NCBI GenBank assembly: GCA_032718475.1
Contig: JAUCBJ010001749.1
Span: 1 to 40,267, forward strand
Origin: Nemertoderma westbladi
Lineage: Eukaryota > Animalia > Xenacoelomorpha
DNA: 40,267 bases
Reading direction: 5' to 3'
Below the pieces are notes generated by a model. That model did no database searches. It was not told the DNA's origin and was given only the letters and a program-made list of their open reading frames with translations. The translations under genes and the position numbers were made by a program. Of this stretch, positions 4,471 to 37,180 are shown piece by piece (position 1 is the stretch's first letter; every line of letters begins with the position of its first letter).

Positions 4471-4493
4471 TGTCATTATGCATTAATACAGTA

Positions 4494-4745: not shown

Positions 4746-4806
4746 TACGGTAATCTTGTAATAGAATACCGGTAGCCTAAACTAAATTTCAAATATTTGA
4801 ATTGTC

Positions 4807-6937: not shown

Positions 6938-6943
6938 AATAAA
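6938..6943 (+). promoter_or_regulatory. Candidate polyadenylation signal of the HOPX-like gene
   Basis: First AATAAA after the stop codon, about 250 bp downstream. Confidence 0.5.
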
Positions 6944-9530: not shown

Positions 9531-10681
9531 CCCCTTTATTGCAAGGTAAATTACCCTATTTATTTACATACTATTTACTAAACATTGTCTACTTATTACT
9601 TTCATAAAAGTGCATCGTAAAGCGTATTTTTAATTCAAAAGTTTGATTAGTTTCTTTAAATAATCCCCGGCTATTTCCGCAAATGTGCGAAAAATACAGA
9701 TTTTATTTTCCACATTTACCGAAAAAAACCTTCCATCCTATCATATCGATCAACCTTCCAAAAATAAGGATAAAAAGTGCTCTCTAACCAGTTTGGTTAT
9801 TTAGATCAGTAAGTACTTCGGTAATAATTTATTCGGCATCGACAAAAATGTGGTTTTTATATTTCCTTGAAAATATGCGGAATACGAAGTCGGACAAAAA
9901 ATATGAGTTTATTTTTGTAAAATAAATATTTAGTATTTTGTGTTTAATAAACCGACCCACTCTATAACATTCCTCGGGACTGTATTGCTGCGAGGTTATT
10001 GGTTGTTTACTGTGGCTAATTATTGCGTAACTATGTACAGCTGTGTAAATTATTAATATTGCTATTGGTCCTTTAGTATCATTTAACCTAGATGTATGAT
10101 GTTCCATTATTATAATAAATAATATGGTTGTGATATAAAGACCTATACCAAATAAAATATATTCAAAATTAAATACTATCCTTACCAAACTTAATATACT
10201 CGCAGATTTAGGTAGTGGCGCTCCAAAACCCAAATTAAAACTATCACTTTTTGGACTTCCACGGTATTACCATTGACCCGCCTCTGAGGTCCACATACAC
10301 CAGACCTAGGGTTAGGGTTATATGTCAGTTATATTGATGTTGGAAGTACTAAATTTTGTATGCCAAACATTTGTATTGTTCTGTTATACTTATAATTATA
10401 ATGATATTTGCTCTATATATTCTTTCTTTATGAAACCAAACCAAACGATGCTTAATGCAATTAATAGTGCTTGTGCTAGTTTATGATTCGATTGTTAGAA
10501 CTCTGTATTTCATTATTGCTTACTGCATTTCTAGTAGTTATCTTGGGAACTAGAACATTCGCTAGGTGTATACTCATTACTCGTACTATATACTTTAAAT
10601 TTCCTACATTTGTTTTTTTAGTGGAATTGAAAAATGGCCAACGTGCATACAATTTTACAAAGGATGAAAATTGAATCCAAT

Positions 10682-11372
10682 ATTACCATGGCAACAGGGC
10701 TTGAACTTTGTATTATTTCATTAAGTTACCACTTAAAATAACATCCATTCAGGGTCACGTTCATTAAATATTGCAAGTCCAGACAATTGATTCCTGATAG
10801 ATTTGGTCTGACTCTGTTGCCATGGAACCGAAAACAATTGGAAGCATAAAGCATAAGATTAGATAATCAACTATTCCCAATAATAATGTAACAAACAATA
10901 TGGATTTCGACCCTATCCGATTCCGAACTATATGTACTACAGTAACTAACTGAAGTATATAGACAGGGCGCAGTTGTAATGTGTACAATATGATTATTAC
11001 TCTTCTTTTTAGTTTTCACTTTAATAAAATAATAATAGGAAAAATAATAATGTACATATACACTGTACTTCATGACCCCGAATGGTTGTTATTTTAAATT
11101 CATGGCGACTATATTTAACTTATATGAAAAATTAAGAAGGTTTATTATTACTTGTTACCAAGGTTACAGGAAGGCCTCCAAACCTTTTCATTAGAGACAC
11201 TACTTGAAATCAAGAGGGGGCCGGGGCGTGTACAATATATTTATTAGATTCCTGTTTTTGGCGGATATGGAACAGGTATTATAAGCATTAGTTAAAAAAA
11301 TAAATATTTGCCGTATAGATACGTAAACGTAGTGACGTTTGAAGAAGTATTCAGAGCAGTTGTCATGGCAAC
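10682..11372. repeat. Decayed repeat carrying GTTGCCATGGCAAC-like (X-box/RFX-like) palindromes
   Basis: Motifs at 10682-10695, 10816-10828 and 11359-11372. No ends or TSD identified. Confidence 0.35.
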
Positions 11373-13467
11373 CTGTTTTTTAAAATTACCACAGTGGATT
11401 TCTCTGATGTGGATTTAGGGAGGGGGCGAGGGTCTTATGTAGAAGCCTTGTTGAATAGTGATAGCCCCGGTAGCCATTGTTATATGGGACCATTAATATG
11501 GGAATTTTTTGTAGGGCAAGCGATTCTGAAATTGACCCCACTTTTGCACTTCATCGTAGCAATTTTCATGCTATTGTAAAATTGTATGCATGTTGGCAGT
11601 TTTTAAAGCATGACAGACTATTTGGTTTGAACGACTGTATTTATGCGTTCGTACTGGTACTCATGGTTAGTAATAATTAGTATAATCGCCTGTAATTATA
11701 ATTACTCATTGTTTCAATTATGATATTTAGGACTGATAAGGTTATTTATATATATGAAAATCTGACAATTATATTTTGTAATATAATTATTTTGTTTTCA
11801 AGTTGGTGTGAAATACGCCATGAAATCAAGGGAATTTAATTCAATGATGGTCTATGGAGTGCTATATACCACGACATGAAATAAAGTAACAGTATTATTT
11901 CAGTATGATGAATAAAACCGGCTCCTTTCCCTGAATTAGTAATTAAAACAAATTTTAATTTTAGAAAAATGAAATTAAATGATTCATTATTCGTAATATT
12001 ATTTTCAATCGAAAATTGAGACGATGCGCAGACATTGCGGGAGACGTTGCGGTGTTTTACAATATTTAAAGTGAGTCTCTATCTATGGCTTTTCATTCGT
12101 GATGAAAGTCGGTGATGATTTATTGACGGCTTATTGCGGTAAGGAACTATATGGAACACCGTTGACGCCAAAGTTTACCACTACTCACGTCTACGAACTT
12201 AATGAGACAAAATTTATGATTCATTAACTCGGTGAGACAAAGTTGGTGAGACAAAGTTAGAGTAGTTAGGTGAAATTTATGTATCTAATAAGTTTGTCGC
12301 ATTAATTTGGTATGCCAGTCCATTACGCCTAGATACGCCCGTTTTGGATTACAAAGTTAGTTCCGTGCTCAGGTCTCCGGGGTAAACATCATACAGTAGT
12401 AGTAAAAGGGGGGTGGCGGATCTTTAGGGTGATAAAAAGAAGCAGTTCTTGCCAATATTTCAACCCAAACATGTATTAAAATACAAATAACAGGCCTTCA
12501 ACAGGGCATAGCTCGTACATACAACTACTATAACTGAAGACCACTAAACACTAGGCCTACATACTATCGATTTGATGTGTGTAGACAGTAGACACAAAAC
12601 ATGAGTAGAGTTCGTAGTTTTTTCGTCTAGATTTTTCACAAAATGAGTAGGCCAGCTCAACTCTGTATAATGTTGATTTTTTGATAAGTGCCGAAAAGTG
12701 ATTTAGTCTACTCGAATTTTTGAAGTTGTCTAAAACACACAAAATTTTTAAATCGCAATATGCCACAGACAAATGGATCCCCCCCCCCCCCCTCCCCACG
12801 TTTGTACAAATCTTATAATATTACATGAAATGAATAGCTAGTTTGACCTCTCACCTCCTTGCTGAGTTGGTTAGTCAGATATTTTATTTTCGCTTTCAAT
12901 CTGTTACTTGTGTAATAGAAATAGATTGAAACCAGTTACGCCGCAGTTATTACTGTATTACACCTTTTTATAGTGGCTCGTTAGTCAGGCCATGGAAGAA
13001 TTCCAAACATATGAGTAAAATCGGAATTTCTTTGCGAAAATATAAATTCAGGTTAATTAACACGGTAAATTATTTATTGATGGCCGATCTTTAAGGTTCT
13101 GATACCCCGAGATGAGTTCCCTGATGTCTACAACTCTGAATTAATAAGGGCAGAGGAATTCTGGTATCCTAAAGTTGAGAAGTATGTACGAAAATATTGC
13201 AAAAGACAATACACTTTTATTTTTTGTCTAAGATTGGGTTTAAATTATCTCTTCATTTTTACTTTTTTCTGCATCAAGTACACTTATAAAGGTGCAGTGT
13301 TACCAGCTTGACTTCTTTGATCCCCCCCCCCCCCCCCCCCCCCTGGTATTAATTGCACACTAGGTATGCCATATAAAAGGGCCTGCGATTGGACGAAACT
13401 TAGATAGACGAGGGGGAGGGGGGGGGGGGGGGGTTACACCCCCCCCCCCCCCCCCCTCCCCGCAGTA

Positions 13468-13996: not shown

Positions 13997-14587
13997 CTAT
14001 GTTTGATGTTTTCTGATCTGTGAGTCCAGCAGTTTACCCCAAATGAAACTAAAAGGATGGCAAAACTTTGTAGGTTGGCCTGCTTGGTCTACCATGGGAC
14101 GCCCCTCATTGGCCCACTTAAAGAGACTCCCTTCCAGGTTATACAAACTCACTCCATCCATCACCAACATTCCAGATTTCTGTAGTTTCTCGATAATATT
14201 TGAGGATCTATAACCCACCGAACAATAAGCAACTACTAAACACTTTCGGCTTAAACTTCCATCAGTAGGAGGTACTTGACAATGAAATATTCTATCAACT
14301 TCGTTCACAATACTTTCTAGATCGGGGTTATAAGGGTCAATATTCATTGCACCTTTTATGTGACTGATAAAGAACTCATCCTTGTGTCGGGTATCGAGTA
14401 TTACGAGGGATTCGGGGTCGTTATCAGAGTTGGTTAACATCTCGTTCAGAGTTTCAGTTTGTAGTTGATTTACCGAGGGAAACTTTGTTCGAATCCCGGT
14501 TAGAGTGATCCGCATTCCAACGGGAACATTGTTCATCGGTTGGGACTCACCCGAACGACTGGCTTGCGGGTCGGGGGTCGAATCCAT
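13997..14587 (-). CDS. Single-domain rhodanese-like (sulfurtransferase) protein, 196 aa, intronless
   Basis: VILDTR..EF..SHIKGA, active-site loop YCSVGYRS, YNLEGSLFKWANEGRP and C-terminal HPFSFIWGKLL. Confidence 0.9.
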   Translation of the reverse strand: MDSTPDPQASRSGESQPMNNVPVGMRITLTGIRTKFPSVNQLQTETLNEMLTNSDNDPESLVILDTRHKDEFFISHIKGAMNIDPYNPDLESIVNEVDRIFHCQVPPTDGSLSRKCLVVAYCSVGYRSSNIIEKLQKSGMLVMDGVSLYNLEGSLFKWANEGRPMVDQAGQPTKFCHPFSFIWGKLLDSQIRKHQT

Positions 14588-16027
14588 TTATTGCCGTTTT
14601 GGATATGTTTTTTTAGTAGAAACTACCAGCAAACCGGTTGCCGGTTCGGCCTACGGTACATTACATCATAAGCTAAGCTCAGAAGCTGTAGGACTAGTAC
14701 GATGAAAGTACAGCTGTATGCAGGCAGTCTGGTATGTTTAAGTGATTTACGCTACAGCCAGACAGCACTACCTGATACAGATTGAGACCAAAGGCCTACT
14801 ACCAGACTACGTACTACAGTGGAACGGAGAATACAGATTACTGATAATTATATTGCTAGTCCTACTTCTTACTTCTGGGGTAAACGATGAATCTTACAGC
14901 AGTACAGTACGTACGATAGGCCATGTTTACATTCGACTGGTATTTGTGTCCATTATCTAAGTTTACTTATCTTTGGTAATGGTAACTGGCCTGAGGATAT
15001 TTGCGGGTTTAGTTTGTTGGTTTGGTCATGGATGATAGGTCTACTACTGATTTCGCTCATTAGTAGGCTACAGTACTACAGTACTTTATATCGCTACACC
15101 TACACCATTTCTGGAGCTGGAATATAGTGTCGTTATTCTGGAAGCATATGACCCCTCTGTGACGGGATCCTGGTTCTGGGATCCCGATACAGTTCGACTT
15201 GGTAATGTGTTTCCTACTCGCTGCGGCTGACTTCTTGGCTGAAGGACTGACTGGCCGTAGGCCTGGGAAAAAGCTAGAGTTAATCTGAGTGTCGATTTTA
15301 TTAATATAATTAATAGTCTCGATAGTACAGTTTACTGTGCTATTGAGATTGACAAATAGATTTGAGGATTAAATTACATTTTTTTTTTTATTTTTTACTA
15401 GCTAATAAAAATTACTAGCTAACACAAAATCAAAATTACTAGCTACGATATTTTTGTCCGATGGCCAAATATTTGTTCTAGAACAAAAAACGTCATAAAA
15501 AAAGAAAAAGTTGGTAAATTTTTTTATTTTAATTTTTCAATAATGATTTTTTCCACGTACTTACGGAGCCCGGGAAGGGACATGAGAAAAATATTTTTCT
15601 AACACGAGCCCTCGTGTTACTAACACGAGCCCTCGTGTTACTAACACGAGCCCTCGTATTACTAACTCGAGCCCTCGTGTTACTAACACGAGCCCTCGTG
15701 TTAGATAACACGAGCCCTCGTATTACTAACTCGAGCCCTCGTGTTACTAACACGAGCCCTCGTGTTAGCTAACACGAGCCCTCATGGTAGCTCCAACGAC
15801 CATTTACATTAATATTATTACAAATTTGGAGTTGTTTCATTGGTTGTAGTAACATAGGAGAACTAAATTGGAGGGAAATTCAAATTGTATCTCAGTGGTT
15901 CTTACGTTTCTGTTCTGTTCCTGTATGTTTCGTGTATGACAACAGTTCGAAGTTTGCCACTTAATTGAATTCGCAGTAATTCAACTTAGCAACGCGAACT
16001 ATTGCATGCCCAGCACATTTTGACATT

Positions 16028-17240
16028 ATGTGGCCCGATGAGTTAATGCCGCTTCTCAACATTTATTTTGACCTTAGCATGCCTTATAAAGATATTTCGT
16101 CTGTACTCGCCAATGATCATGGGATAAACATTGGTGAGCGACAACTAAAACGTTTATTTAGAGATTTCGGATTACAACGTCGAAATTATACACCATTGGA
16201 AGAAGTTGTAGAATTTATTAAAAATCAATTGGCTGGATCGGGAAGCATGCTGGGTTATAGAATGATGTTTGAAAAGTGTCGCCGCAACGGCTTAGTTGTG
16301 AAAAAGGAGGACGTACGAATAATTCTCAAGGAACTTGATCCACGAGGAGTCGAGCTTAGACAATCGCACCGACTTAAACGACGTTCATACTATGCCAGAG
16401 GTCCAAATTACCTCTGGCATTTGGACGGCTATGATAAACTAAAACCGTTCGGTCTATGTATAGTATAAGCGGTTGCATAGATGGGTTTTCACGGAAGATT
16501 TTGTTCTTAGAAGTTTATAAAACCAATAACAACCCAAAAATTATTGGTGGCTATTTTGTTGATTTAGTAGCTCGCCTTGGTGGGTGCCCTTTAATGGTCA
16601 GGGCAGACTACGGAACTGAAAACACCTACGTGAGAAGCTTTCAGATGTTTTTTCGCCGCAATTGCACTGATGGCTTGGTAACCCGGGCGTATACAGACGG
16701 GCGCAGTACGTCAATCAAAGAATCGAGAGTTGGTGGGGGGTTCTTCGGAAGGAGAACGCGCAGTTCTGGATAGAATTATTTAAAGAATTGCAGGCAGAAG
16801 GTATCCTCCCCGGAGACGTTGTTTCAAAGGCTGTTGTTCAGTTCTGTTTTACTTCACTAATTCAAAACGAACTAGACACATTAGCATCAGTTTGGAACCA
16901 CCATCTTATTCGTCCTTCAAGAAATCCCAACGTTCCAAGCGGTCGACCTAATATTATGTATTGTTCGCCTAGCCTCTACCATGCTACCGAACTAGCTACC
17001 GAACAGCTCGTAACCGTAGCGCCTTCTGAAATTAATACCTGCTGCTCCAACGAATTATTCCGCTCATATATTCCTTGTGATGCCGATGTATATGAACTGT
17101 GCATTCAGTTAATACGTGAGAAGAACCTCCGACGTCCTCTATCCGTAGACGACGCCGTGGAACTTTATCTCATCCTTCACAATGCAATTCGCGAACTTCT
17201 TGGAAACAACGTAAACGATATGTATACTGAGTCAGATTAA
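16028..17240 (+). pseudogene. IS3/IS481-type DDE integrase-transposase with two frameshifts
   Basis: HTH region, then WHLDGYDKLKPFG, CIDGFSRK, RADYGTEN and (after a 1-bp loss near 16712) NQRIESWW, then WNHHLIRPS. A 5-bp insertion near 16461 splits C-I-S-G-C. Confidence 0.9.
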
Positions 17241-17588
17241 CTAATTATTATAGTTGAGTATGATGTAGGTGTGTTTTTATGATATACTGTACTAAAATTA
17301 TTGTCTGTATAGCGAGAATTAATGATAAATTTTGATAATCGATATAATTTATTTATATCAATAATCAACCATCAATCACCCCCCCCCCCCCGCCCGTCGT
17401 TCCTTTATTTGTTATCGGAGATATCTATTATAAATTAAAATAATAAAATAATTACTGACCGTTTGCATTTGAATAATAAAAGTATGTTTAGTATATTTTC
17501 CTTTAATAATAATTATTAATAAAGATATGTTTAATTTAATAATAATTATTATTAATCCTAATACAATTTTTCAAACACTTTCTTAAAG

Positions 17589-17648
17589 GGAAGCAGGACA
17601 ATTCGGTCCAATTAATTTTGTGTTTTGGGACCGAATTGTCCTACATCC
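17589..17648. mobile_element. 60-bp mini-MITE with 9-bp TSD
   Basis: GGAAGCAGGACAATTCGGTCC / GGACCGAATTGTCCTACATCC. Flanks are TTCTTAAAG and TTCTCAAAG. Confidence 0.75.
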
Positions 17649-17848
17649 TTCTCAAAGATAATAATTCATCATAGCGGGCAATGTTTATAATTTATTAATT
17701 AATTAATAATTTACATACCAACAAGGTCCTGGAGATAATCCCTCCAATAGGTTAGCATTCGACGCTCGCGTCGCCGCCGAATTGAACCTTGCTCTGACCA
17801 CTGCACTTCAAATAGCTGTTCAACAATAGTGGCGTCAAGTTCACACTT

Positions 17849-18133
17849 TTACAAGTTTGGTTCTTTGTTAAGTTAATAATGTATTACAATAGTAATTCTC
17901 CTTTCTAGATTCAATGAAGGATTAAAGACTCTGGGAGTTCTAAATAATATACAAGATAATAGAGATATCTTTAAGGAAGTTTTCGTTTATAAAAAACGAA
18001 AACTTCCTTAAAGATATCTCTATTATCTTGTATATTATTTAGAACTCCCAGAGTCTTTAATCCTTCATTGAATCTAGAAAGGAGAATTACTATTGTAATA
18101 CATTATTAACTTAACAAAGAACCAAACTTGTAA
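17849..18133. repeat. Perfect 140-bp-arm palindrome with 5-nt loop, containing a HECT/G2E3-like exon fragment
   Basis: Arms 17849-17988 and 17994-18133. After TTTCTAG the sequence reads FNEGLKTLGVLNNIQDNRDIFKEVF. Confidence 0.9.
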
Positions 18134-20105
18134 TTGCCTTTCGTCGTCATAGTAACGATCATTAATTGTTGATAATTATAGTTAATAAAATAATTAATTA
18201 ATTAAATAAATATTGTAAATTCAACAACTTTAATAAAACATGGATCAATAGAAAGGAGTGAAGGAAATTAAGAAAGTGAAAGAGATTGATTAAGTTACAT
18301 AAATTTTAGATAATTGTAATTATTCAGCAATTAAGTTTCACAACTAATCGTTATAATTAATGGCAGTTTTTAAATATAGGAAAATTACTGCTCTAGTGGC
18401 CGGCGAATGCGATCGAAGCAAATAAACTTCATAAAGACTGGAGACAAGTGTATCTCTATGGGTGACAAGTGTATCTCTATTTAGTAGTACTGTAATACTG
18501 TATAACTTCTGGGCTTATCTTGTCGGTTACCATCCCAGGAATGAACTCGCCCAAGCTTCGTTCTCTCATGAATGTTTCAAGTTCGTTATTTATATTCACA
18601 CTTAGTCAGTATACCTGCAGCCGTTAAGAGAAACGCGAAATATATAATAGGCCTACTGTATACTGAACAGTAACGTAAGAACCACTGATATACAATTTTA
18701 ATTTCCCTCCAATTTAGTTCTCCTATGTTTTTACTACAACCAATCAAACAACTCCAAATTTGTAATATTAACGTAAATGGTCGTGTTAGCTAACACGAGG
18801 GCTCGTGTTACTAACACGATGGCTCGTGTTAGCTAACACGATGGCTCGTGTTAGCTAACACGATGGCTCGTGTTATAACACGAGGGCATGTGTTAGTAAC
18901 ACGAGGGCTCGTGTTATGTAGTAACACGAGCCCTCGTATTAGCTAACACGAGCCCTCGTGTTAGTAACACGAGCCCTCGTGTTAGCTAACACGACCATTT
19001 ACGTTTGTTAATATTGGGGAAATTAAAATTGTAAATAAAGTAAAAAAAATTTTTTTGAACTCTCGCATTATCGTTATTTTTCAACACTCGATATTTTTAC
19101 TCGCGTTATTTTTACTCTCGATATTTTTCATGTCTCGATATTTTTCAATATAACCCACCTACAGGGAGTGCCAAAGTGACAATTAGTATATAAGCCAATA
19201 GCGGGCAGGGGAGCACATGGGGAAAGATAGGAAAGCATCCATTGGGTAGCAAAAGTACAGTAGAGGTGAAACCAATATCTATGTGTATCAATCATATAGT
19301 TATCCCGATTACTGATTTACCGGTCAGTTCATTAATCACAGAGTTGCAGACCGGTTATAGTTTTAACCATCACTTCATCACTCTATACACTGCTGTTGTA
19401 ATTCTGTATTGCAATTTCAATCATATACTGTTATACATTCTGTGCTATTATCATTGGAACATTAACATTGAGAAACACAAACTCTGTTATTTTCCCGACG
19501 GCCTTCGGCCAAAGATATAAGTTCAGCAGCCCAGCAGAAAGTGACGCGTATAACCAAACCCGGTCGGGATCCTTGAACTCGATCCCGTCACATAGTATTG
19601 GTGAGATTTCAGGACAGAGGGATTTCAGGATTTGTTGTGATTGTGATTTCTGGATTTGTCCGTTTATTGTTTTGTTATACTGTACTGTTATATGATGTGA
19701 TTTGTTTGGTTTTGGTGTTATTTGTTCTGATTTGGCTGTGTGGTGTGATTTGTTCTGATTTGGGTTTTTAGACCGATCCTTTACTGTACTGCTGTACTGT
19801 TTTTAGTCCTACCGCCTTTCTGCCTTTTACAATTTGGTTTTACCATTTACCTTGGTTTTAGCAGTTTCAGAGTTTAGCATTTACTGTAGTTATGGGGCGC
19901 CATTCTGGTCAATTGCACATGCCATTCTCGCTGCGAGATGTCATTCTCGCAGCGAGATGTCATTCTCGCAGCGAGATGTCATTCTCGCAGCGAGATGTCA
20001 TTCTGTCTGCGAGATGCCTTTCTCACTGCGAGATGTCCCATTTTCTGTTTATTTTTATTTTACTGAATCCAGTATCTCAATCTGTACTTTACTTGTAACA
20101 CTGAA

Positions 20106-20905
20106 ATGGGTTGGTCAAAAATTGTTGTCGACGAAGATCGCTTACATTTTCGACGACGGTTTAAAATTGATGATATATACTGCTCTGCTATGATATAGCT
20201 ACTGTAGATTGATGAATATTAGTCCGAAGACATTGCGTCGACGCCGAGAAGAGCTAATTGAAGAGGCCAAGGTTATCATCCAAGGTTAATATGGCCAAGG
20301 GAACTAGACAGTAATAATGACATCCACATATTTGCTTTGCATTATATTTATATGCCACGTATACAAAGATCAGATCACTGCAACTACTACTTGAACAATG
20401 AACACGCACTATCTTCAATTAACAATAGATCTCCAAGTCAAATTTAGACCGAATCTATGATTTTAAGGGGAGTTCACCATTTTACAGATTATTTATTAAA
20501 AGATTATAGTTTTTGATCTAAATATTGTACAGCTAACAGTGGCACGTTATTTTAATAACGTCAATAGAACAGGTTTCAGTTTTAATTTTGAGTGTAAATA
20601 GTTATTAACTATATAACTAAATAGTTATTGACTATATAACTAAATAGTTATTGACTATATAACTAAATAGTTTTATTTTTTGGCTAAATTGGTAACCCCC
20701 CCCCCCAGCAATAATTTCCACCTGGATAATGACAATATACATAAATTATATGATAACTTTGAAGTGCGTTACGATGAAGAGGAGGGGGATATTATTGTGG
20801 CTGAGTTTGAAAAGGACTTCAACCCATACAACTACTGTACATAATATTGATCCACTTCAGGACGATGGAAATTTCGTTATTCATCTATACAAACAGTATG
20901 TTTAA
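20106..20905 (+). pseudogene. Integrase N- and C-terminal remnants
   Basis: Removing CTGTA at 20202-20206 restores the HTH-like IARLMNISPKTLRRRREEL. Removing CTGTA at 20835-20839 restores QLHNIDPLQDDGNFVIHLY, which resembles the C-terminal motif of this integrase family. Confidence 0.6.
20595..20672. repeat. 23-bp tandem repeat x3.4
   Basis: TAAATAGTTATT(A/G)ACTATATAAC. Confidence 0.9.
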
Positions 20906-21070
20906 TCACTAATGTAGAGAGAGATGTGGCAACACTGAAAAGAATGGTGAAACTAATTCTGTATAATATATATTCTTTAAACTTCTTATTGTTATACAGT
21001 ATATTGATTATAAGTGTATTTTTTGTAGTATCGTTCTACAACATTCAGTATTACAGTAATTATACTATTA

Positions 21071-21854
21071 CTAGTGACGGGCCTAGCGGACCGATAAGGA
21101 ACCGACTTTTTATTTCAAATAAAAAAGATAACGAGAAATAGTATAGAACTAATTATGTAAAAATACAATCATATTTCATACAATAATTACTAAGAAATTC
21201 GATCTATTATTAGTTGCTTAATTCTAGAACAAAATCAACCTGCAAATCGTGAAGACCTCGTTTTGGTATTTCGAAACCATGTTGCTGGTCCGATGCGCGA
21301 TATCGAGTTTAGTTAATAAATTGTTAACTACATCAATTTATATGTACACAGTAATAAGAAATCCTTATGAATGTAATCAAATACAAATCATTCTAGAAAA
21401 ATTTCCTCAAAAAGTATCAAGTCTTGGCATTGGTGCTTCAAAACTAGGCTAGTCAGATTCAGGATATTGCGTTTAATATAAGAATCGAAAACCCCATCTA
21501 ATTCCTTAAAGGCGTTAATAAAATATTGCAACTTTTTTGAAACATGGACAGTCAGAAAGAGGACATCGAATTAAGTTGAAAGATTAAAACCCCATCGAAT
21601 TTGGACTAAGTGTTCCTGAGTTATAGCTGATCTAAAAAAAATTACCCCCACCCAAGTTTTTTTCAATTTTTTGCGTTTTTTTTTATAGGGAATCAATTGG
21701 CAATACTGGCTATGAAATTTTTTTTTGAAATTTTTGGTCATAAAAAAACATGGGAAAAGTATCTTCTCAACTCTACACACTACTGTATAACTAGTCAAAA
21801 ACCATTCAGGTAGCCAGCATTTCCCAGGAACCTACTGCTATATACTGTAATAGA
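21071..21854 (-). mobile_element. Non-autonomous Helitron-like insertion
   Basis: On the minus strand it starts TC and ends with a GC hairpin (CGGTCC-GCTA-GGCCCG) followed by CTAG and T. No TSD. Confidence 0.5.
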
Positions 21855-21971
21855 CATCTCGCTGCGAGAATGACATCTCGCTGCGAAAATGACATGTGCA
21901 TTTGACCAGAACGGCGCCCCATATTTAGTACTGTAGCTGTGTAGTGCAAGTGCAGTAGTGCCTTGCACCTA

Positions 21972-24088
21972 GGTCACCTAAAGAGGCTGAAAAAAAGAGG
22001 TTGTTTATTTTTACAATATTATGATAATTTGATATGGGGTTAGTTTTATAAATTTTCATTTGCTGCAATTTGGTCAATGGACGTAATTGAAGTCTCCTCG
22101 TTAAGCAAGACACCAAATTTTATGGTAGCTAGTGTTTTAGGTAGGTTTAGCTAGTCATTTCAACACTGGTTCCGACATCCTACTTCCTTCTATAAATATT
22201 TTGTAGTGGCTAGTTCTTATTACTATTTGTATAGAAAATGTTCCAGAACATGTTGGCTATTCATTTTTTTTTTAAATTATGTTCTAGAACAAATATTTTT
22301 TGTTCTAGAACATTTTTTAGAAAAAAATCTGGATTCTATTTAAAATTCACGGAATCGTTCTAAAACGTGTTTAAATTTGGGTGCTGGTCACCTCGCCGCA
22401 CTGCCACTTCGCCGCAAGTCATCTCGCCGCAGATAATGTGCGGCGAGGTGTCTTGCGGCGAGGTGTCTCACTATAAATGCAATTTCGCCGCAAATTATCG
22501 GACACCTCGCCGCAAGTCAATATAAATCATTTATTTCTATATTTACACGAAAGCCTACTTATGGCATTGGACATTATTATAAGAAGAAATAAAATAATAC
22601 GGTAAGGTTTGTTGTTCTATTATAATTACTGTATTATATTACATGTTATCATAGATACAGTAAGACTATTTGAGTAACGTATTAGATTATAGTAAAATAC
22701 GGTCATAAAGATTCATAGAGGACTATGAATGACATATAATGAGTATTCTGACATAGAGGTCAGATCAGAATACGGTCATTGAAGTTGTTTCCATGTCATT
22801 GATTACGGTACATTGCAGCGTTACGAGTAATTCTCCAGAACACTGTTAAGTTGGCATAATGTACTGTAACAATAACTATTTACGTACATGTACAATGTAC
22901 TAAGTACGGAAACGGAAGTAAGGCAACATAATGTAATAAGGTTAATACAGTAATACTGTATGTTTATGTTAAATCTTAATTACAAATGTAATGTTCTTAG
23001 TGGATTGATATACTTATATTTGTTGTCAGTCACTTTTTTTGTTAAGAGCAAAATTATGGTCGAATTACATTTCAAATTAATTTCCATGACATTAATAATA
23101 ATCAATAATATTGCATTAAATATTATAATTTTCTTTAATTTCTTACATTACCTATTTTATTTATTTGTGTGGAATTAATATCGCACTACCAAATCGCCAG
23201 GACAAATTTAAGAAATTCCAACAAATAATTATTTATTACATGGGAAAAAAGTAGAACTTTTTTCACTATTCTCGAGGCATTTTTAATACGTTACTCAAAT
23301 ACCGGTACTCTTACTGTATCTATAATAATACAGTAATTATAATAGAACAACAAACCTTACCGTCTGACCGTATTATTTTATTTATTTTATAATACATAAT
23401 GTCCAATGCCATACTGCCATAACTAGGCTTCCCCTGTGTAAATATAGAAATAAATGATTAATATTGCCTTGCGGCGAGGTGTCCGATAATTTGCGGCGAA
23501 ATGGCATTCACAGTGAGACACCTCGCCGCAAAGACACCTCGCCGCACATTATCTGCGGCGAGGTGACCTGCGGCGAAGTGGCAGTGCGGCGAGGTGACCA
23601 GCACCCTTTAAATTTAATACAAAAAAATTTCAAAATTTATTCACAATATTTTTTTTTCACAATTTCTTTTATTGATTTTAAACTCGTTTTAGAACGATTC
23701 CATGCGTTTTAAATAGAATCCATATTTTTTCTAAAAAATGGTCTTGAACAAAAAACATTTGTTCTAGAACATATTTTTTTTTTTTAATGAATAGCTAACA
23801 GTAACATGTTCTGGAACATTTTCTATACAAATTGTAATAAGAACTAGCCACTACAAAATATTTATAGAAGGAAGTATGATGTCGGAACCAGTGCTGGAAT
23901 TACTAGCTAAACCTACCTAAAACATTAGCTACCATAAAATTTAGTATCTTGCTTAAAGAGGAGACTTCAATTACGTCCATTAACCAAATTGCAGCATATG
24001 AAAATTTATAGAACTCTCCTCAGAAATATCATTATTCTGATATTGTAAAAATAAACTGGCCTCTTTTTTTCAGCCTCTTTAGGTGACC
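21972..24088. mobile_element. Foldback-type non-autonomous element (about 880 bp without its insert), TA or CTAG TSD
   Basis: About 400-bp inverted arms starting GGTCACCTAAAGAGGCTG (21972-22376 versus about 23677-24088). CTAG at both junctions. Confidence 0.9.
22379..23606. mobile_element. Mutator-like non-autonomous element nested in the foldback
   Basis: About 300-bp TIRs starting GGGTGCTGGTCACCTCGCCGC. The 9-bp TSD TTTAAATTT is at 22370-22378 and 23607-23615. Confidence 0.92.
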
Positions 24089-24106
24089 TAGCAGGCCGTA
24101 CTGCCG

Positions 24107-26345: not shown

Positions 26346-26481
26346 GTACTGCCGTAGTATACAGTATAGTAGGCCATGCTTACACTTACACCTTCTGACC
26401 GTACTGCTGTACTGGTACCGCCTACCGGTACCAGGGTACTGCCTTACAGCATTAAGCACTAAGCAGTTCAGTTAAGCCTTC

Positions 26482-29350
26482 CAGTCAGGGAAAACATCCC
26501 CGTGGGGATATGTCAAATTTTGGCTTAATTTCTCAACCTATCCTAGTCAGGATAGATGACATATCCCCACCAGGATAGATGGCACATTTTCCATTTTTCC
26601 GGTTTGCGCAAAAATTGGTTGGATGGCTATGTATTTCTTCGGTATTACAATGATCAATAGGTTACAAAAATTGTAAAATTTCACGCCCTTGTCATTGGTA
26701 AGATTTATAAGAAGATTATAGGGGTTTTAAATTCACATTGATTTCTATCCTGCTGGGGATATTATCGATATATCCCCAGCAGGATATGTTTTATTTATAT
26801 CCTGGTGGGGATATTTTGGATATATCCACAGTAGGATATGTTTTAGAATAATATGTGTGTTTCCTATTCAGCATATCCTATTCAGGATATGCTAGGCTGA
26901 TGCTGGTGTGCGTGTTTCTTTCTACTGTATAGGATTTCGTGGGTGAAGACATTTGATTTATCTGTCAGTAATTGTTAGGCAAATTATTACGAAACTGCAG
27001 TCTGAATAATGGTAGGGCTACCGGTACTTATTAGACCCTATTACAGTACCTATTACGATAGTCTGTCAGTCTGTTCTGTACCATAATAATTCTGATTATT
27101 AATTATTTTGATAATGGCTTCCGGTGCGGTAAATATAAAGAACCACGGAAGGGCCGTGTTGAGACTTGCTTCTGTTCCAATTTATCTGATCTATGCTCAA
27201 CTGAAACTAGTGAAAATTTTTACACGAGGAATAAAATTTTCGAACTTCTTCTTTGGGTCCAAAATCCCAAAAGCTATGTTGGACCATTACATACCAGGGA
27301 GTCTATGGTAATGAATTCTGTAGATTCGTCCAAGTTTGGTGTCATGGTTAGAGCTGCCACTTCGCCTGCAGCATTTTACCCCACTCAACAGACAATCATA
27401 CAGGCATCTTCTGTAGACTTCCCTGAAGTGTCGCCGTCTAAAGATATATGTATTGCGATAGAAAACTTTCAATTTGTAGGCAAAACCTACCGCCTTTTCA
27501 ATAAGAAGGGTGTACCAATAAGCAAGGTTTGCTCAGTGATCAGCATACCTTAATTGTCAGGATTTATTAATTCAAAGGCACCCAATTCAGTTCATTGACC
27601 TAACTGGATTGGATGTAGGCGAGTGAGTGGAGGCCTTTATTGAAATTGAATTGATTGTAACATTGTTTATGTTACATTTAACTGCAACTATATTTATACA
27701 CATATACATATACACATATATATATATACATATTTGTACAGTAACTATATTTAAAATATATAATATTATATTCAGTCTGTACTGGTGTCAAAATATATAA
27801 TGCAACTATCCCCAAAGGCATAATAATTAAAGAACCCAAAAATAAAGTAAACTGAAACTAAAGGTGTAGGCCTACTAACGATTGAACTAAGTTGTCCCTT
27901 CTTCTTCCAACCAGCCAACGGAAGTTGTGAAGGGCACTCCCCTTCGCCTTCAGTAATGACTGGGGGTGATAAACCCGTTTCTTTCTAGCCAGCTAGCACT
28001 AGCAGTGGCTGATGATTCATCTGGCTGTAGTTCGTGTTGTCCACTTACTCCATCTATCTCTGACTTCATCTGTCCATCCACTTCATCTACTCCCAGCACC
28101 TCCTGTCCATCCACTCCATCTACCTCCGATATCGCCTCTCCACTCACTCCATCTATCTCCGACATCCCCTGTCCACCCACTCCATCTACCTCCAACAGTC
28201 CAACACCTCCTGTCCATCCACTCCATCTACCTCCGATATCGCCTCCCCACTAACTCCCTCTATCTCCGACATCCCCTGTCCAGTGTCCACCCATTTCATC
28301 TACCTCCAACATATCCTCTCCATCCACTCCATCTACCTCCGATATCGCCACTCCACCCACTCCATCTATCTCCGACATCCCCTGTCCACCCACTCCATCT
28401 ACCTCCAACACCTCCTGTCTGCCTGTCCACCCACTCCATCTACCTCCGATATCGACTCTCCCTCCACCAACTCCATCTCTCTCCGACATCCCCTGTCCAC
28501 CCACTCCATCTACTTCCTGTCCACCCACTCCATCTACATCCGATATCGCCTCTCCACCCACTCCAACATCCCCTGTCCATCTATATCCATCTATCCAATT
28601 AAGTTCAATCAGTCAATTTGTCTGAAGTTTAGTATGTTTACTGTATATACTGTATGCTGTACAGCTCTACTGTAGACAGATATACCAGTATCAGTGTACT
28701 GTACAGACTGAGTTGTTGAGGGACTACTACCAGACTACAGGACTACCCTTCTGTCAGCCAGGTACCGAAGTAGACTACCTATTATACCGGTTGTTATATT
28801 ACTTTCGCACAGAAGGCATTACAGCATTAAGGCTACCAACTAACATCTATGTGTCTGTACGGTATGTGTAAGCTTAGAGGCAATCCTTCTGGGGATATGC
28901 CACAAAACTTACATAAAACAAGCTACTGGCTGACTGGCAGACTGGTATATTATTCTAAAACATATCCCAAGACTGGAGATGTCCAAAATATCCCCACCAG
29001 GATATAAATAAACATGAATGAACTTTATCGTGAAACATACAGACATATCCCGCTGGGGATATGTCGATAATATCCCCAGCAGGATAGAAATCAATGTGAA
29101 TTTAAAACCCCTATATTCTTCTTATAAATCTTGCCAATGACAAGGGCGTGAAATTTTACAATTTTTGTAGCCTATTGATCATTGTAATACCGAAGAAATA
29201 CATAGCAATCCAACCAATTTTTGCGCAAACCGGAAAAATGGAAAATGTGTCTTCTATCCTGGTGGGGATATGTCATCTATCCTCACTAGGATAGGTTGAG
29301 AAATTAAGCCTAAATTTGACATATCCCCACGGGGATGTTTTCCCTGACTG
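26482..29350. mobile_element. TIR element with CAGTCAGGG ends and 5-bp TSD (unclassified)
   Basis: About 350-bp TIRs containing palindromic ATATCCCCNNNGGGATAT-like repeats. CCTTC at 26477-26481 and 29351-29355. Confidence 0.92.
28040..28600. repeat. C-rich degenerate tandem repeat (about 33-bp units)
   Basis: Recurrent CCACTCCATCTA(C/T)CTCC units. The minus strand reads EVDGVGGQ-type acidic repeats. Confidence 0.85.
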
Positions 29351-29677
29351 CCTTCAGCCTTACCAAGCAAGCAAGAAGTAAAGTAATCGTATAGGCCTAA
29401 CAGTAACAGTCAGACAGTGGACAGTAGGCCTATAATAGTCTGACAGTGTAACATGCTGAACAGCTGAATGCATAAAAAAATAGGAAATAAGATCTGAAGA
29501 TTATAGGTTATCACTGTTTTACATTTCAGAATTTAGCAGTTTAGTAAACTTCTGAACTTCAAACTTATGAAAATAAACTGATAAATGTCCCCTCATGATG
29601 CTGCCCCTCTGCCCCTGCCATGCGCAATGCCAGTATGCCCTACACCCTAACTCAGTAACTGCTGAACTGCCTACAGG

Positions 29678-31139
29678 CAGTTAGGTACAATGGCCAAATC
29701 TGGCAATGATTGTGATTGCCATATTTGGCAACCAAGCAAAATCTGGCAACATTTCTGATTGCCTGATTTGGCAACTATATAAAGCCGTTGTTGCCATATT
29801 TGGCAACTTAACTAACTCATTGAATATGGATTATATGGTTCTGCATCATTAAGTCCTTCTATGGTCAGATGGTAGTATGGTCAGATGGTCATTCCTTAGA
29901 TCCTGAAATGTTAATGTTAGGCCTAGAAAAAAGGCAGAGGCTGGGTAGGGCCACGTTACAGGTTATACTTAACTTATACCAGTCAGCCAGTAGTCTGGTA
30001 GTGGCATATTCTAAGTTCTAACCAATACAGCAATATATCCTAATAAATGAGGTGAGAATGAGAGTCAATAACACAAACACAGACTGACTGGTGATAGTTT
30101 TTTTGCTTTTTTGACATTTTTGCTAGCCATCTCTCGCGCTGCTTGGGGAGGTGATTGATTGTTGTTTATACCAATAATAGTTTAGTAGTTAAAGATTGTA
30201 ACTGTGTAATGCTGATACAATTGCCCAGCAATCTAAATCATCCTTCACTCTATATCAGTTCAGTATATCTATCTTTCCATTCCTACATCAGTACATACAG
30301 ACATATAATAAAAATAATTTCATCCCGTTTTTCATTAGCTGATTACAGATTAGGGCCTACTAGTAACAATTTGTTGAATCCCTTAACCTGCCTGTTAACA
30401 CGCGTTTTGGTTTTCTCAGTCTTTCTAAATTTTGACACTATTTTTCTTACGTCACGCCGTTTCTCAAACTTTAGGCTAATGCCCCCTTGCCTTCTTGCTG
30501 CCTTTTGGTGATGTCAACGTTCTGTCTGACGTTGTCAAATATTATTACGTTTATTTCCATTTTGCAGCCTTTGAAGCATGTGATTCTTTAGATTTGTTTA
30601 TGCCTATACCATAGGGCCTATACCAGTCTACCAGTACGGTATCTGTTACAGACTCATCCATCTGTCCATTAACATATTAACAATAGGCCTAACAACATAT
30701 CAAATAGGCCTACATTCTGACATTTCATCAACTAATAATGTTTATAAATCATCACAACTCGACAAGGGTAAGCAAGCAGTTAGCAATTTTGAAGTAATTT
30801 ATACAATGTCAGGGTTACTGACAGGGCTGCACAATAATAATTGTTGCCAAAAATGGCAACCATTATTTTTCTTTAATTCTAATGGTTGCCAAAAATGGCA
30901 ATAATTATTTTAGGCACATTTCGGCCTATTGCTAAGAGAAATTCAGACGATGATTTTTTTTCTTATACGGTCAATTATATTTAAATTTCGCGCTCTTTTC
31001 ACTTAACTATTTACCAAAATGCGATTTTGCTTCTGGGCTTGCGAAAATTAGAAAAACCAAAAGTTGCCAGATTTGGCAATAAACATTGCCATATGTGGCA
31101 ACTTTTGAGGTTGCCAGATTTGGCCATTGTACCTAACTG
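29678..31139. mobile_element. TIR element with CAGTTAGGT ends and 5-bp TSD (unclassified)
   Basis: Perfect 29-bp TIR CAGTTAGGTACAATGGCCAAATCTGGCAA with subterminal TTGCC..TGGCAA palindromes. ACAGG at 29673-29677 and 31140-31144. Confidence 0.92.
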
Positions 31140-32264
31140 ACAGGCCTACAGACTGACAGAACAGCTAACATCCAACACAGTCTGACAGTACTGCAGTAAC
31201 AGATGACAGACAGACAGAGTGAGGAGTAACGTAACGGCTAACACTGTTCAGAGTTCAGCTGTTACCTAGTTACTGTAGGGTAGGTGTCAGGTGTAGGCGT
31301 GTAGCAGGTAGGCCTGGCCTACAGCCCAGCTGTGCGTATCTCTGTATCTGTCATTTGTGCACAGCCTACCTGCCTCAGTCAGTCAGTGCCTACGTCTAGG
31401 CCTGGCTAGTGGCTACAGCGTACTGCTGTACGGATACATGACCGTACGTAATCAGGACCGAATATAACATAGTTATTACGTATCGAACGTAACCGCAATT
31501 ATGTTACATTGGATCCTATAACTATGAACTATGTTACATTCGATCTACAAATTACTAAGCTCGAATGTAACATCTGAACATTGCCATTTACAGATTTAAA
31601 GGCTGAAAGGAGCAGGTTACAGAGGCATGTAGCGTGTAGGGCAGTAGGGAACATACCCTTAAATAAGCTCCAAAACTGGGTTCTTATTTAAGGAAAATGG
31701 CTCTTATTTAGCCTTTTTTGGATATTTTTTCGACATAATATGCAAGAACTTGTTTCAGGTAAAAATACGGCATAATTTTATTTCACAATATAAAAGTTGG
31801 GTCTTTCTTGAACATAATGCAAAAAACCAGAAAACATTTCACCGTCCGGTTTTTTTTCTACAAGCGTTTTAAAATTGCATCAAAAATACGACCAGTTCCT
31901 AAATAAGAGGGATTTTTTAAATTTACCTTATTTAAGACATCGAAATTGTACACATAAATACTAAAAGTCCTTAAATAAGAACTTTTTGACATGGGTTTCA
32001 TATTTAGGTATACAATTTCATTCCAAAATCTGCATACTCCTTAAATAAATTAAATATTTCTCATTTCTCAAATATTAAATTAAATAAATTAAATTAAATA
32101 TCCTTATATAATGTCTCTTATAACCTCGTCTCCCAGCCCCGTCCTCCTTCTGCCCTTAACTGCTTATGACAGTTATGTATGACCTAACTGCCTAACCTTT
32201 ACAGGACATTGCAAGATGCCGAGATAAGGGAGCTTCTGAGCTTAATTTGATAGGTGCAAAAATG

Positions 32265-33495
32265 CACAACGAGCAACAATGACCAACAACGAGCAACAAA
32301 TGAACAATGAGTAACAAAACAACGAGCAACAATGAGCAACAACAAGTAACATTGAGCAACAATGAGCAATACTAAAGTACAACAATGAGCAATAATGAGG
32401 AACAACGACTGAACGAGCAACAATGAGCAACAACGAGTAACAATGAGCAACTACAGAACTACGAATACTGCGAGTAACATTGAGCAACAATGAGAAACAA
32501 TGAGCAACAACGAGCAAAAATGAGCAATACTGCAATAATAAAGTACAACAACGAGCAACAATGAGCAACAGCGAGAAACAACGAACAACAATGAGCAATA
32601 ATGAGGAACAACGACTGAACGAGCAACAACGAGCAACAATGAGCAACAACGAGTAACATTGAGAGACAACGAGCAACAATGAGCAATAATAAAGTACAAC
32701 AACGAGCAACAATGAGCAACAACGAGAAACAACGAGCAACAATGAGGAACAACGACTGAACGAGCAATAATAAAGTACAACAATGAGCAACAACGAGTAA
32801 CAATGAGTAATAATGAGCAACAATGAGCAATAATAAAAGTACAACAACGAGCAACAACGAGAAACAACGAGCAACAATGAGGAACAACGACTGAACGAGC
32901 AATAATAAAGTACAACAACGAGCAACAACGAGAAACAACGACCAATAATTAGGACATGAGGAACAACGAGTAACAATGAGCAACAATGACAATGAGTAAC
33001 AACGAGTAACATTGAGCAATAATAAAGTATAACAACGAGTAACATTGAGCAACAACGAGCAACAATGAGAAACACTGAGCAACAATGAACAATAATAAAG
33101 AACAACAACGAGCAACAATGAGCAACAACGAGAAACAACGAGCAATAATGAGCAACAACGACTGAACGAGCAACAACGAGTTATATAGAGCAACAATGAG
33201 CAATAATAAAGTACAACAACGACTGAACGAGCAGCACCGAGTAATATTGAGCAATAATAAAGTACAACAACGAGAAAAAATGAGCAACAATGAGGAACAA
33301 CGATTGAACGAGCAATAATAAAGTACAACAACGAGCAACAATGAGCAACAACGAGCAATAATAGAGTACAACGAGCAACAACGAGCAATAATAAAGTACA
33401 ACTAACGAGCAACAATGAGCACCAACAAGCAACAATGAGCAACAATGAGAAATAATAAAGCACAACGAGCAGCAATGGGCAACAACGAGCAACAA
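32265..33495. repeat. Strand-asymmetric low-complexity satellite, AACAA(C/T)GAGC-type units
   Basis: Degenerate 10-bp units with recurrent AATAATAAAGTAC and GACTGAACGAGC variants. Confidence 0.95.
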
Positions 33496-33516
33496 ACTGC
33501 GTCGAACCGGATTGAA

Positions 33517-33797
33517 TGTGGGGGAGAGTCACGTTCAAGTGAGCGAAACCTTAGCATATGGGTGCTATTAATATTAACGAATTGTCTGTCGTCGTTGTAA
33601 ATTTTTTATCGCTAATAACTCGGTCATTCTTTGATGAAATTAAACGAAACTTGGTATGTATGTAGTCTGTCAAAAGATTATAAATATTAAAATTAAGGAG
33701 ATGAGTATTGTGTTGAACGACCTCTGACTAACGAAAGACAACATGTTAATGGGGTGGGGCCCCTATCAGCTAGGGCTAGCTAAGGCTTTGCTCACTT
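33517..33797 (+). mobile_element. HINE/Helentron-associated element
   Basis: Inverted AAGTGAGCGAAACCTTAGC (33537-33555) / GCTAAGGCTTTGCTCACTT (33779-33797). GTC microsatellite and AAACTTGGTA core. Confidence 0.6.
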
Positions 33798-33913
33798 CAT
33801 GCTGCGTAAAGGTCCCACGAACGTGTCCCACTGCGGCCTGAGCCAGTTGAGCCAAAAACGTCACCCAGTCATCATCTTTAACCTTCTAACGTCTATCAGC
33901 TGCCCGACGGAAC

Positions 33914-34821
33914 CCAGGTTGGAATTCATGCTGCAAAACTCGGACGCGTACCTGCGCGAATGACCGCAAACCAGATGCGCGTTGCGCGTTTGGGTGAGAC
34001 AGGTGCGCGTTCGGGTGTGAGACAGGTGCGCGTTGCGCCTCAGCGCGCAGCTCTGCCTCTGATGCGCACCACAAATTAATTGAAATCACGAAAATACACA
34101 AAAAAATTTCGCTCGCTGCGCTCGCATTAGTTTCTCATTTACAATTCTTCAAACAGTCAAATCACTTCACCATAATACTGTAATACCGGCAACCGGCAGA
34201 CCGGAGCTGAATTTGTCTATTTATTTTAACTACAGTACTCTATTGTTGTATTGTTATTAGGTCTATGCTATGCCGATGTTACGTTAGTAAACAGGTAAAG
34301 TCAGAAAGTAACAATGTATTATAAGTATGACTTAATTATAAGCCAACTGTATGTTTAAGCCTAATTGTTAGGTAGGCCTATACAAAGTATTATTGGCAGA
34401 CTGGTACCTATTTCAATATTCGTTTTTTTGAAATTACCGGTACATGTTTTGTTTGTGATCTAAAATAATATTTTCTGTTATAAAAGCAGTGAGCCCGATG
34501 GGCCACCATAGTAGTGGATTAAAAAAATATTTTTTAATATTAACAATTTTGATGTTGCAAAAATTACATTTATTATGTAAGCCTAGATTCAACGTAGACA
34601 GACAGACGTAACGATAAGCTTAAAACGCTCAAACTTGTAAAATAGGAATGTAAAATTGTTCTTATGAACTGTGCGATTTTTTGAGATATGCATGACATGA
34701 GCTGCGCGATTTTGTTTGGATTATGACATATGATGAGGTGCGCGACGAGCCAATTTCAGGTGCGCGGTGATTTCAAAACAACAAAGCGTACCTGCGCGCT
34801 CATGCATGAATTCCAACCTGG
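33914..34821. mobile_element. hAT-like non-autonomous element with 8-bp TSD
   Basis: 18-bp TIR CCAGGTTGGAATTCATGC. GACGGAAC at 33906-33913 and 34822-34829. GC-rich TGCGCG subterminal motifs. Confidence 0.85.
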
Positions 34822-36447
34822 GACGGAACCATATTTGTGCCTGCCTATTGACATGACATTGACATTGGTTTTTTTTCACACCTTTCAAGTACAACATTGT
34901 GGACAATCCATCTAAGTGGGGCGTAATGCGGAGCAGAAGAGGAAATGCAGGACACAAGTTAGTTTTTCGAAACTGTGCGGCGATGTCCAGTTACTTGAGT
35001 CATGTCTCATCGAAATACGTGACAATGTATGTGCGCTCAGATGGGCGATGGGCTATTCTTTTGAATATCAAAGGGCTATTCTATGCTACCGTGTGAGGTA
35101 AGAATGCCAGTGCTAGCAACTTCATTATGATACGATATTCTACAGAGGATTTATAGAGTGCAGTGCAACCATTGTCCTTATCCTTAACCCAACAATTAGC
35201 AATATTCAGACTGACATAAATCAAAGAATTATGAAAGAAGTGTAACATATACTGTAAGGAATAAGGAATATTTATTTTATTTAAGGAATGTGCAGATTTT
35301 GGAATACAATTGTATTCCTAAATAAGAAACCCAGGTCAAAAAGTTCTTATTTAAGGACTTTTAGTATTTATGTGTACAATTTCGATATCTTAAATAAGGT
35401 TAATTTAAAAAATTCATCTTATTTAGGAACTGGTCGTATTTTTGATGCAATTGTAAAACGCTTGTAGAAAAAAAACAGGACGGTGAAAGGTTTTCTGGTT
35501 TTTTGCATTATGTTCAAGAAAGACCCAACTTTTATATTGTGAAATAAAATTATGCGGTATTTTTACCTGAAACAAGTTCTTGCATATTATTATGTCGAAA
35601 AAATATCCAAAAAAGGCCCAAAAACCCCTAAATAAGAGCCATTTTCCTTAAATAAGAACCCACTTTTGGAGCTTATTTAAGGGTATGTTCCCTACTGTAG
35701 GGGGAACCAAAACAATAAACGAAAGTTTACACATACAGACATATGTTACAAGATTATGCAGGTTACTTTTATTTAAAGGCTGAAAGGAGCAGGTTACAGA
35801 GGCATGCAGCATGTTGGGGGAACCAAAACAATATACTGATATACGAAAGTTAACACATGTTACAAGATGCAAGATTATGCTGTTATGCAGGTTTCTTAAT
35901 TGGGTCTTGGGTCTTTGTTTTGTACTCACCAACACCAAACTGTTCCTTCCTGTAATTATACAGTTATACGAAGCATTTCATTGGTTAACTCCTGAAATCA
36001 AAACACAACTGAAATAAATGCATGTTACATTCGAGCTTAGTAATTTGTAGATCGAATGTAACATAGTTATAGGATCCAATGTAACATAATTGAGGTTACG
36101 TTCGATTCGTAAAAACTATGTTACATTCGATCCTGATTACGTTCGGTCTGTCACCCCTGCTGTACTGCCCTGCAGCCCTCAGTCCCTTCCTGCTGCCTGC
36201 TGTCCTGTCCTGCCTTCTGTCCTGTACTGTGCGTTTCGGACTTTCAAGTTTCAGACAGTCAGAGTTTGTACGGGATGACGGTGGACGGGTCTGCGGGTAG
36301 AAGGGATAAGTTTATCAGTTTATTCTCGAAGCTAATTCAGTAAATTTGCTTTCATTTTTATTTATATGCTAGGCCAGTCTGCCAATCAGCCAATACAGCA
36401 ATAGGCCTACCCCAGCGCCTATGACAGTAGAGTGGAGAGTGCTGGAG

Positions 36448-36927: not shown

Positions 36928-37180
36928 TGCTGGAGTGGCAATTAGGCCTATACCTCTCTGCCTATACCGGTACCTGTAAATGTAATTCGTAATTGACAAT
37001 TCCTTATTCGGTTAGTATTTTCTTGGCATTTATCAGTTTATATCATCATTATATAACTAGAACCAGATCAGCGGAGCTGGAGAGTTACCGGTAATTCAGT
37101 ACGGTAATTGTTATTAAATTAAACGAACTTGCAGTTGTCTACAGAATGTAAAAGGCTGAAAGGTAAATTCGTTGCACAAA

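Follow-up and report, generated by a model that had tools for sequence, protein, structure and literature searches.

Background

Elements of the hAT group are held to form hairpins on the flanking DNA when they excise, and to leave behind altered target duplications that contain no letters of the element; their ends resemble a CAG start. The hairpin model of hAT excision is set out in PMC2921059, and a hAT group with 5-bp target duplications, hAT5, is named in PMC12730594, which refers for it to Kapitonov and Jurka (2007, in Repbase Reports). In the Tc1/mariner group, as described in PMC6943129, cleavage of the non-transferred strand takes place a few letters within the element and produces 3' overhangs, and the footprint consists of the 2-4 terminal letters of the element standing between the two target duplications. 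For Sleeping Beauty, the same source gives CAG or CTG as these letters, with TACAGTA and TACTGTA as the canonical footprints and a central mismatch that is resolved to one form or the other. Ginger elements have TGTNR termini and a 4- or 5-bp duplication (PMC2836005).

Here we describe a stretch of 40,267 nucleotides from Nemertoderma westbladi (contig JAUCBJ010001749.1; the whole of this stretch is hereafter called the window), in which one arm of an inverted-repeat element carries two 8-letter extras that its other arm lacks. We consider that these extras are probably the excision footprints of a cut-and-paste element that duplicates 5 target letters. In the literature searched, with Repbase Reports and most subscription journals lying outside it, we found no prior account of such a 5+3 footprint, i.e. 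a 5-bp duplication combined with CAG or CTG.

The host element and its inverted arms

The element that carries the two extras (the host element; 21969-24091, no strand assigned) is non-autonomous and has long inverted arms. Its ends are of the GG...CC type and flanked by TA, so that the two tips (CTAGGTCACCTAAAGAGG...) together with their flanks read C-TA-GGTCACC...GGTGACC-TA-G. The left arm, which holds the unscarred states, occupies about 716 letters at 21969-22684 (+), and the scar-bearing right arm occupies about 808 letters at 23284-24091 (-). According to alignment and BLAST, the likeness between the arms is 83-88% and the tips are perfectly complementary (32/32 letters). Repeats of the GCGGCGAGGTG type are present in both arms. 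A BLAST comparison of the host element with the window revealed no further copies of it.

The first-pass annotation had labelled this element Mutator-like. It does resemble Mutator-like elements in its long terminal inverted repeats of about 720-810 letters. However, no 9-11-bp target-site duplication was found at the host element in spite of its perfect tips, the 9 letters beside each tip being different (gccttgcac vs caggccgta), and we therefore rejected the Mutator-like identity. Judged by their letters, the TA-flanked GG...CC ends would fit a duplication of TA or CTAG. A second difference from Mutator-like elements is the lack of a transposase domain in the one frame scanned: the 84-aa frame at 23458-23709, the sole frame of at least 75 aa in the host element, gave no Pfam match and in particular none to a MURA-type transposase, although this copy is non-autonomous, so that the Pfam result taken by itself leaves membership in the Mutator family possible.

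Two 8-letter differences between the arms

Alignment of the left arm to the right arm recovered all four arm-specific differences that had been listed for this element in the first-pass annotation, at matching positions. Two of them had been described as +8 events, and affine-gap alignment and BLAST agree that both are exact and that their coordinates are right. At scar 1 (23359-23371), the right arm has ACCGT-CTG-ACCGT (ACCGTCTGACCGT), and the mirror position of the left arm has a single ACGGT (22599-22603). At scar 2 (23409-23421), the right arm has CCATA-CTG-CCATA (CCATACTGCCATA), and its mirror is a single TATGG (22560-22564). The affine-gap alignment of the inner arms contains exactly two 8-letter gaps, one at each of these scars; the letters next to the gap match perfectly at scar 1, and there is one mismatch two letters away from the gap at scar 2. 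BLAST recovered both 8-letter gaps independently.

In a self-comparison of the whole window, both of the 8-letter indels between repeated copies (2/2) had the form N5-C(A/T)G-N5, these two being scars 1 and 2. A third site of this form in the host element, TAATA-CAG-TAATA (22943-22955), lies in the unpaired middle part. Between the window and public contigs, none of the indels falls at 23359-23421 among the 12 of 95 listed. The gap totals of the contig pieces listed include 8, 16, 16, 16 and 24, multiples of 8 being not clearly above chance over these 32 rows.

A window-wide class of N5-C(A/T)G-N5 sites

The form of the two scars is strongly enriched in the window. Altogether we counted 119 N5-C(A/T)G-N5 sites, not all of them independent or at their site of origin, compared with 1.51 +/- 1.16 (maximum 7) in 200 third-order Markov simulations, which corresponds to an enrichment of about 80-fold. 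Among 5-letter direct repeats that stand 3 letters apart, the leading spacers were CAG (60 sites) and CTG (59 sites), followed by CCC (20) and GGG (18); the near-equal counts of CAG and CTG reflect strand symmetry only, as the two words are reverse complements. The window contains no comparable enriched word at any other spacer length from 0 to 11 or at repeat lengths of 4 and 6, no collapsible site of the N5-CCG-N5 or N5-CGG-N5 form, and no 6-letter CAGCTG form of the scar. Of the CAG and CTG triplets in the window, about 10% are scar centres, compared with 0.64% for the other 62 triplets pooled.

The sites are diverse, representing 115 distinct contexts, and they share a preference in which the two sides of the 5-mer mirror each other as reverse complements around its middle letter: A or C at position 2, and G or T at position 4. 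G is depleted at position 2 (p 6e-9) and C is depleted at position 4 (p 6e-6). Both position rules hold in 62 of the 115 sites, compared with 24.7% of all 5-mers (p 3e-11), and scar 1, scar 2 and the target duplications of the three intact elements described below (E1, E2 and E3) all conform to them. A dimeric transposase choosing its target would give a symmetric preference of this kind.

There are about three scars per kilobase, and the inserted scar letters account for approximately 2.4% of the window. Their distribution is clustered, with 28 sites between 3508 and 5028 and most of the others at 26400-37200; the stretches from 5100 to 12900 and from 37200 onwards have none. The site at position 31637 corresponds to the junction of E1 itself, and the scars within E3 may have been copied along with that element. 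AACGA-CTG-AACGA is present in 6 copies within a 10-bp tandem array, its multiplicity being due to array growth at 32266-33495; this array, located inside E1, has about 121 copies of the 10-bp unit ACAATGAGCA / ACAACGAGCA.

Perfect scars exceed the background by about 112 sites and one-mismatch scars by about 21, and for this reason most scars look recent in comparison with the 12% by which the arms differ. Iterative collapsing of the window yielded 104 + 16 + 1 sites over its rounds, and the later rounds of 50 simulations yielded none. Internally deleted remnants of the form N5-CAG...CTG-N5, up to 80 bp, were not enriched in the window (4 vs 1.2 expected, maximum 4).

Intact elements with matching ends

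The scar form predicts a source that ends in CAG...CTG and duplicates 5 bp of its target, and we searched the window for N5-CAG...CTG-N5 structures with matching ends. The search gave four candidates, three of which (E1, E2 and E3) match at all 20 of the terminal letters compared and have perfect 5-bp duplications. All three are intact non-autonomous elements that start with CAGT and end with ACTG, and they represent three different families. E1 (31642-35697, 4056 bp) is flanked by the duplication TAGGG and has 34 perfect terminal letters, E2 (29678-31139, 1462 bp) is flanked by ACAGG and has 29, and E3 (26482-29350, 2869 bp) is flanked by CCTTC and has 39. Beyond these perfect stretches of 29-39 letters, the similarity of the terminal repeats continues to 80-130 letters. 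No further copies of the ends of E1-E3 were found in the window by BLAST, and exact-match searches of metagenomes with the ends of E3 and of E1 returned 0 loci.

No recognisable protein was found in E1-E3 by Pfam. The scans for a transposase began with 5 frames and went on to 43 of the 85 window frames of at least 75 aa and, within E1-E3, to 52 of the 62 frames that are 40-74 aa long; frames that lie in low-complexity arrays or had been covered in an earlier round were omitted. None of these sets gave a transposase. The only mobile-element Pfam match among the frames scanned is an integrase core (PF24764) at 16438-17240, which belongs to an element other than E1-E3.

Comparison with named transposon groups

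By their terminal letters and footprint, E1-E3 behave like Tc1/Sleeping Beauty elements. They begin with CAGT and end with ACTG, and the scars share with the Sleeping Beauty/Tc1-like footprint (TA-CAG-TA or TA-CTG-TA, as given in PMC6943129) the layout of duplication, CAG or CTG, and duplication. The scars retain the three terminal letters of the element between the duplications, an arrangement within the 2-4 letters of the Tc1/mariner footprint that occurs 119 times in the window compared with 1.5 expected. In contrast to Sleeping Beauty, the duplicated letters are five and varied instead of TA, as is also seen in the flanks of E1-E3 (TAGGG, ACAGG and CCTTC), and the net gain is 8 letters and not 5. 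A further difference is that no transposase of Tc1/mariner was found in the scanned window frames: E1-E3 gave no Pfam match to a DD(34)E/D transposase with a paired-like DNA-binding domain, and no autonomous copy is present in the window.

Among named groups, hAT5 comes closest in duplication length and in its CAG-type ends, and we know of no other in which 5-bp duplications are combined with such ends. All three intact elements have 5-bp duplications (3/3), the structure of the scars agrees with this length, and the CAG start of E1-E3 resembles hAT ends. However, the scars keep three letters of the element (CAG or CTG) together with intact duplications, and in this they differ from a hAT footprint of the hairpin type. 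If E1-E3 were hAT5 elements, the hairpin model would predict that no element letters are retained, which would speak against the excision reading. Terminal repeats with 29-39 perfect letters and similarity up to 80-130 are long for hAT, and a hAT transposase (DDE with a C-terminal hAT dimerisation domain) was absent from all window frames scanned with Pfam. Ginger was considered owing to the integrase-core frames at 15980-17240 (see below) and was rejected as the source of the scars, as E1-E3 start with CAGT and not with TGT.

Proposed origin of the scars by excision

In the mechanism that we propose, a cut-and-paste element with CAG...CTG ends would have landed at ACCGT and, separately, at CCATA, each 5-mer being duplicated upon insertion. 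The element would then have been excised with a 3-letter stagger, the non-transferred strand being cut 3 letters inside the element as in Sleeping Beauty. The resulting CAG overhangs could pair at C and G, the middle mismatch would be repaired to A or T, and end-joining would retain one CAG or CTG between the two copies of the duplication. Such a reaction would combine the donor-cut geometry of Sleeping Beauty with a 5-bp target stagger.

The direct observations comprise the +8 differences, the window-wide class, the symmetric site preference, the three intact elements, and a public contig without E2 and its neighbouring scars. From these we infer that the scars were produced by excision and not by some other process; no allele carrying an element was seen at 23359 or 23409, and no site showed both an element allele and a scar allele. 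The proposal of the first-pass annotation that the two arms form a pair of empty and scarred sites works here, because the +8 events are exact, they match a class enriched about 80-fold, and three intact elements have the matching anatomy.

We also put forward, tentatively and with less than even confidence, the broader idea that a new kind of transposon is at work. It would join 5-bp duplications to the 3-letter stagger of Sleeping Beauty, would jump locally and often, would have left the roughly 2.4% of scar letters in a state that varies between haplotypes, and would preferentially re-hit CWG sites. If this were true, the non-coding DNA of an animal genome would grow by scar upon scar.

Excision footprints are usually studied locus by locus in the laboratory, and here a natural genome preserves marks of a single, sharply defined type, with unscarred, scarred and occupied sites all within the same 40 kb. 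If they are excision products, the scars would document germline transposition and end-joining repair in readable form and would offer a means of dating transposon activity. They would also give rise to 8-letter indel polymorphism and to non-coding sequence rich in CAG/CTG, and 8-letter events would have to be expected by annotators and variant callers. A 5-bp target stagger together with a 3-letter donor stagger would represent a transposase cleavage geometry absent from the literature searched, and an enzyme with such a geometry would be of interest both for the mechanism of transposition and for the building of transposon tools.

Polarity and alternative explanations

We infer that the right arm gained 8 letters twice, rather than that the left arm lost them, on three grounds: the behaviour of the class as a whole, parsimony, and a comparison of haplotypes at one other place in the window. 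The latter is provided by a public contig of 818 letters (X1 record 7), which aligns to 29350-29672 and then directly to 31156-31400, with 0 other letters over 560 aligned. This contig contains neither E2 nor the scars GCCTA-CAG-GCCTA and ACAGA-CTG-ACAGA. When E2 and one copy of its duplication are removed from the window, GCCTA-CAG-GCCTA is uncovered, and therefore E2 landed inside an older scar. The contig has a lower depth (50.8), and within 29350-29672 another 8 letters are missing from it. The initial 170 letters of the contig fail to align to the right end of E3, and it may represent a haplotype without E3 too.

A second internal control is provided by a duplicate of about 130 bp, copy B of which is located at 35763-35905 (+), and copy A of which is split by E1 into 31586-31641 and 35703-35775. 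The scar AAAGG-CTG-AAAGG is common to both copies, and the scars at 35731 (copy A) and at 35831 and 35875 (copy B) are copy-specific. E1 and this duplicate are enclosed by a 134-nt inverted repeat (90%) at 31440-31573 and 36022-36148, which may mark where a larger and older element ended.

The opposite polarity would have N5-CWG-N5 as the ancestral state of both arms, the left arm having lost exactly 8 letters per site between the 5-letter repeats by microhomology-mediated repair or slippage. An indel between only two sequences cannot be polarised, a 5-letter direct repeat with a 3-letter interval is a natural substrate for deletion, and the other indels of the arms run both ways, the left arm having its own +12 relative to the right arm in the affine-gap alignment. 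Nevertheless, we regard such losses as unlikely: they would require the motif on both arms at two sites and then two exact losses in the same arm, i.e. at least four events compared with two for gain. Moreover, members of the class appear elsewhere as additions, two of them being missing from X1 record 7 and three being specific to one or the other copy of the duplicate, and most scars seem younger than the divergence of the arms.

Slippage and polymerase-theta repair commonly yield short duplications, and the 8-letter extras could have been left by repair or replication unrelated to transposons, for example by slippage or templated insertion at breaks. However, neither a constant CAG or CTG between the copies nor a fixed copy length of 5 would be expected from such processes, and they predict neither a site preference with two-fold symmetry nor intact elements with exactly such ends and such a duplication length; we rate an origin of this type as very improbable. 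That the arm differences are artefacts of alignment or assembly is hardly conceivable. MAFFT did draw the gap at scar 2 as 11 letters plus mismatches, but affine-gap alignment gives two clean 8-letter gaps with which BLAST agrees. Both scars are also spanned by X4 record 25, a contig that comes from another sample and aligns over 23306-23526 with 3 differing letters and only 2 gap letters, and they are therefore not an error of one assembly.

Other differences between the arms

The remaining two arm-specific differences are +6 events in the right arm. At 23300-23307, the right arm has TA-CCGG-TA (TACCGGTA) opposite a plain TA at 22667-22668 in the left arm, and the affine-gap alignment gives an exact +6 with one neighbouring substitution. 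This word occurs 9 times in the window compared with about 1 expected. The earlier description of this word as arm-specific stands, and its reading as a scar is plausible: the word in the right arm may have been left by an element that targets TA and has CC...GG ends.

The second event, TAA-CAG-TAA (TAACAGTAA) at 23796-23804, lies opposite TTG at 22253-22255. It is present and arm-specific as had been claimed, and its interpretation as a scar is not supported: the word occurs twice in the window compared with 0.76 expected, the 6-letter gap fits several placements in MAFFT, and the N3-CWG-N3 class as a whole (3-letter repeats around CAG or CTG) is not enriched in the window. We rejected N3-CWG-N3 as a scar class on account of this lack of enrichment, and TAA-CAG-TAA is treated here as an arm-specific indel outside the scar classes.

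Further probable scars, elements and open frames in the window

The word TA-GGCC-TA (TAGGCCTA) was found 20 times in the window compared with 0.5 expected, in diverse flanks (for example, at 1464, 2332, 4140, 24265, 29392 and 36943), and TA stands on either side of 20 of the 94 GGCC words in the window. The word has the appearance of a TA-GG/CC-TA excision scar, and corresponds to the 2+2-letter scar predicted by the TA-flanked, GG...CC-ended host element. This class differs from the +8 N5-C(A/T)G-N5 class, and the family of the host element is only a candidate for its maker. The Tc1-type words TACTGTA (38) and TACAGTA (30) are also in excess, about four-fold, with approximately 8 of each expected.

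An element at 19878-21927 has TATGGGGCGCC... inverted ends and CATTCTCGCAGCGAGATGT repeats. Its 6-bp duplication, TTTAGT, becomes apparent only after a TA-CTG-TA scar is removed from the left copy, and its flanks are a further pair of empty and scarred sites. The element at about 15590-19015, a DNA transposon of the integrase type, is decayed and belongs to another family than E1-E3. Within it, at 15980-17240 (+), there are three overlapping frames with frameshifts between them, which match the integrase core PF24764 (E 2e-9 and 8e-8) and have a weak HTH/Clr5 match; arrays of the palindromic repeat TAACACGAGCCCTCGTGTTA are located on both sides of these frames. At 17849-18133 lies an inverted repeat of 140 nt whose two halves match perfectly around a 5-nt loop.

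An open frame at 37160-40267 (+), with 1036 codons, runs to the end of the window in G+C-rich, scar-free DNA; it gave no Pfam match. A single-exon frame with a rhodanese domain at 13997-14587 (-) has its best relatives, with identities of 42% or less, in marine invertebrates. The frame at 4801-5958 (+) ends in the start of a homeodomain, and 27 of the 28 scars of the region 3508-5028 cluster upstream of it, between 3508 and 4632.
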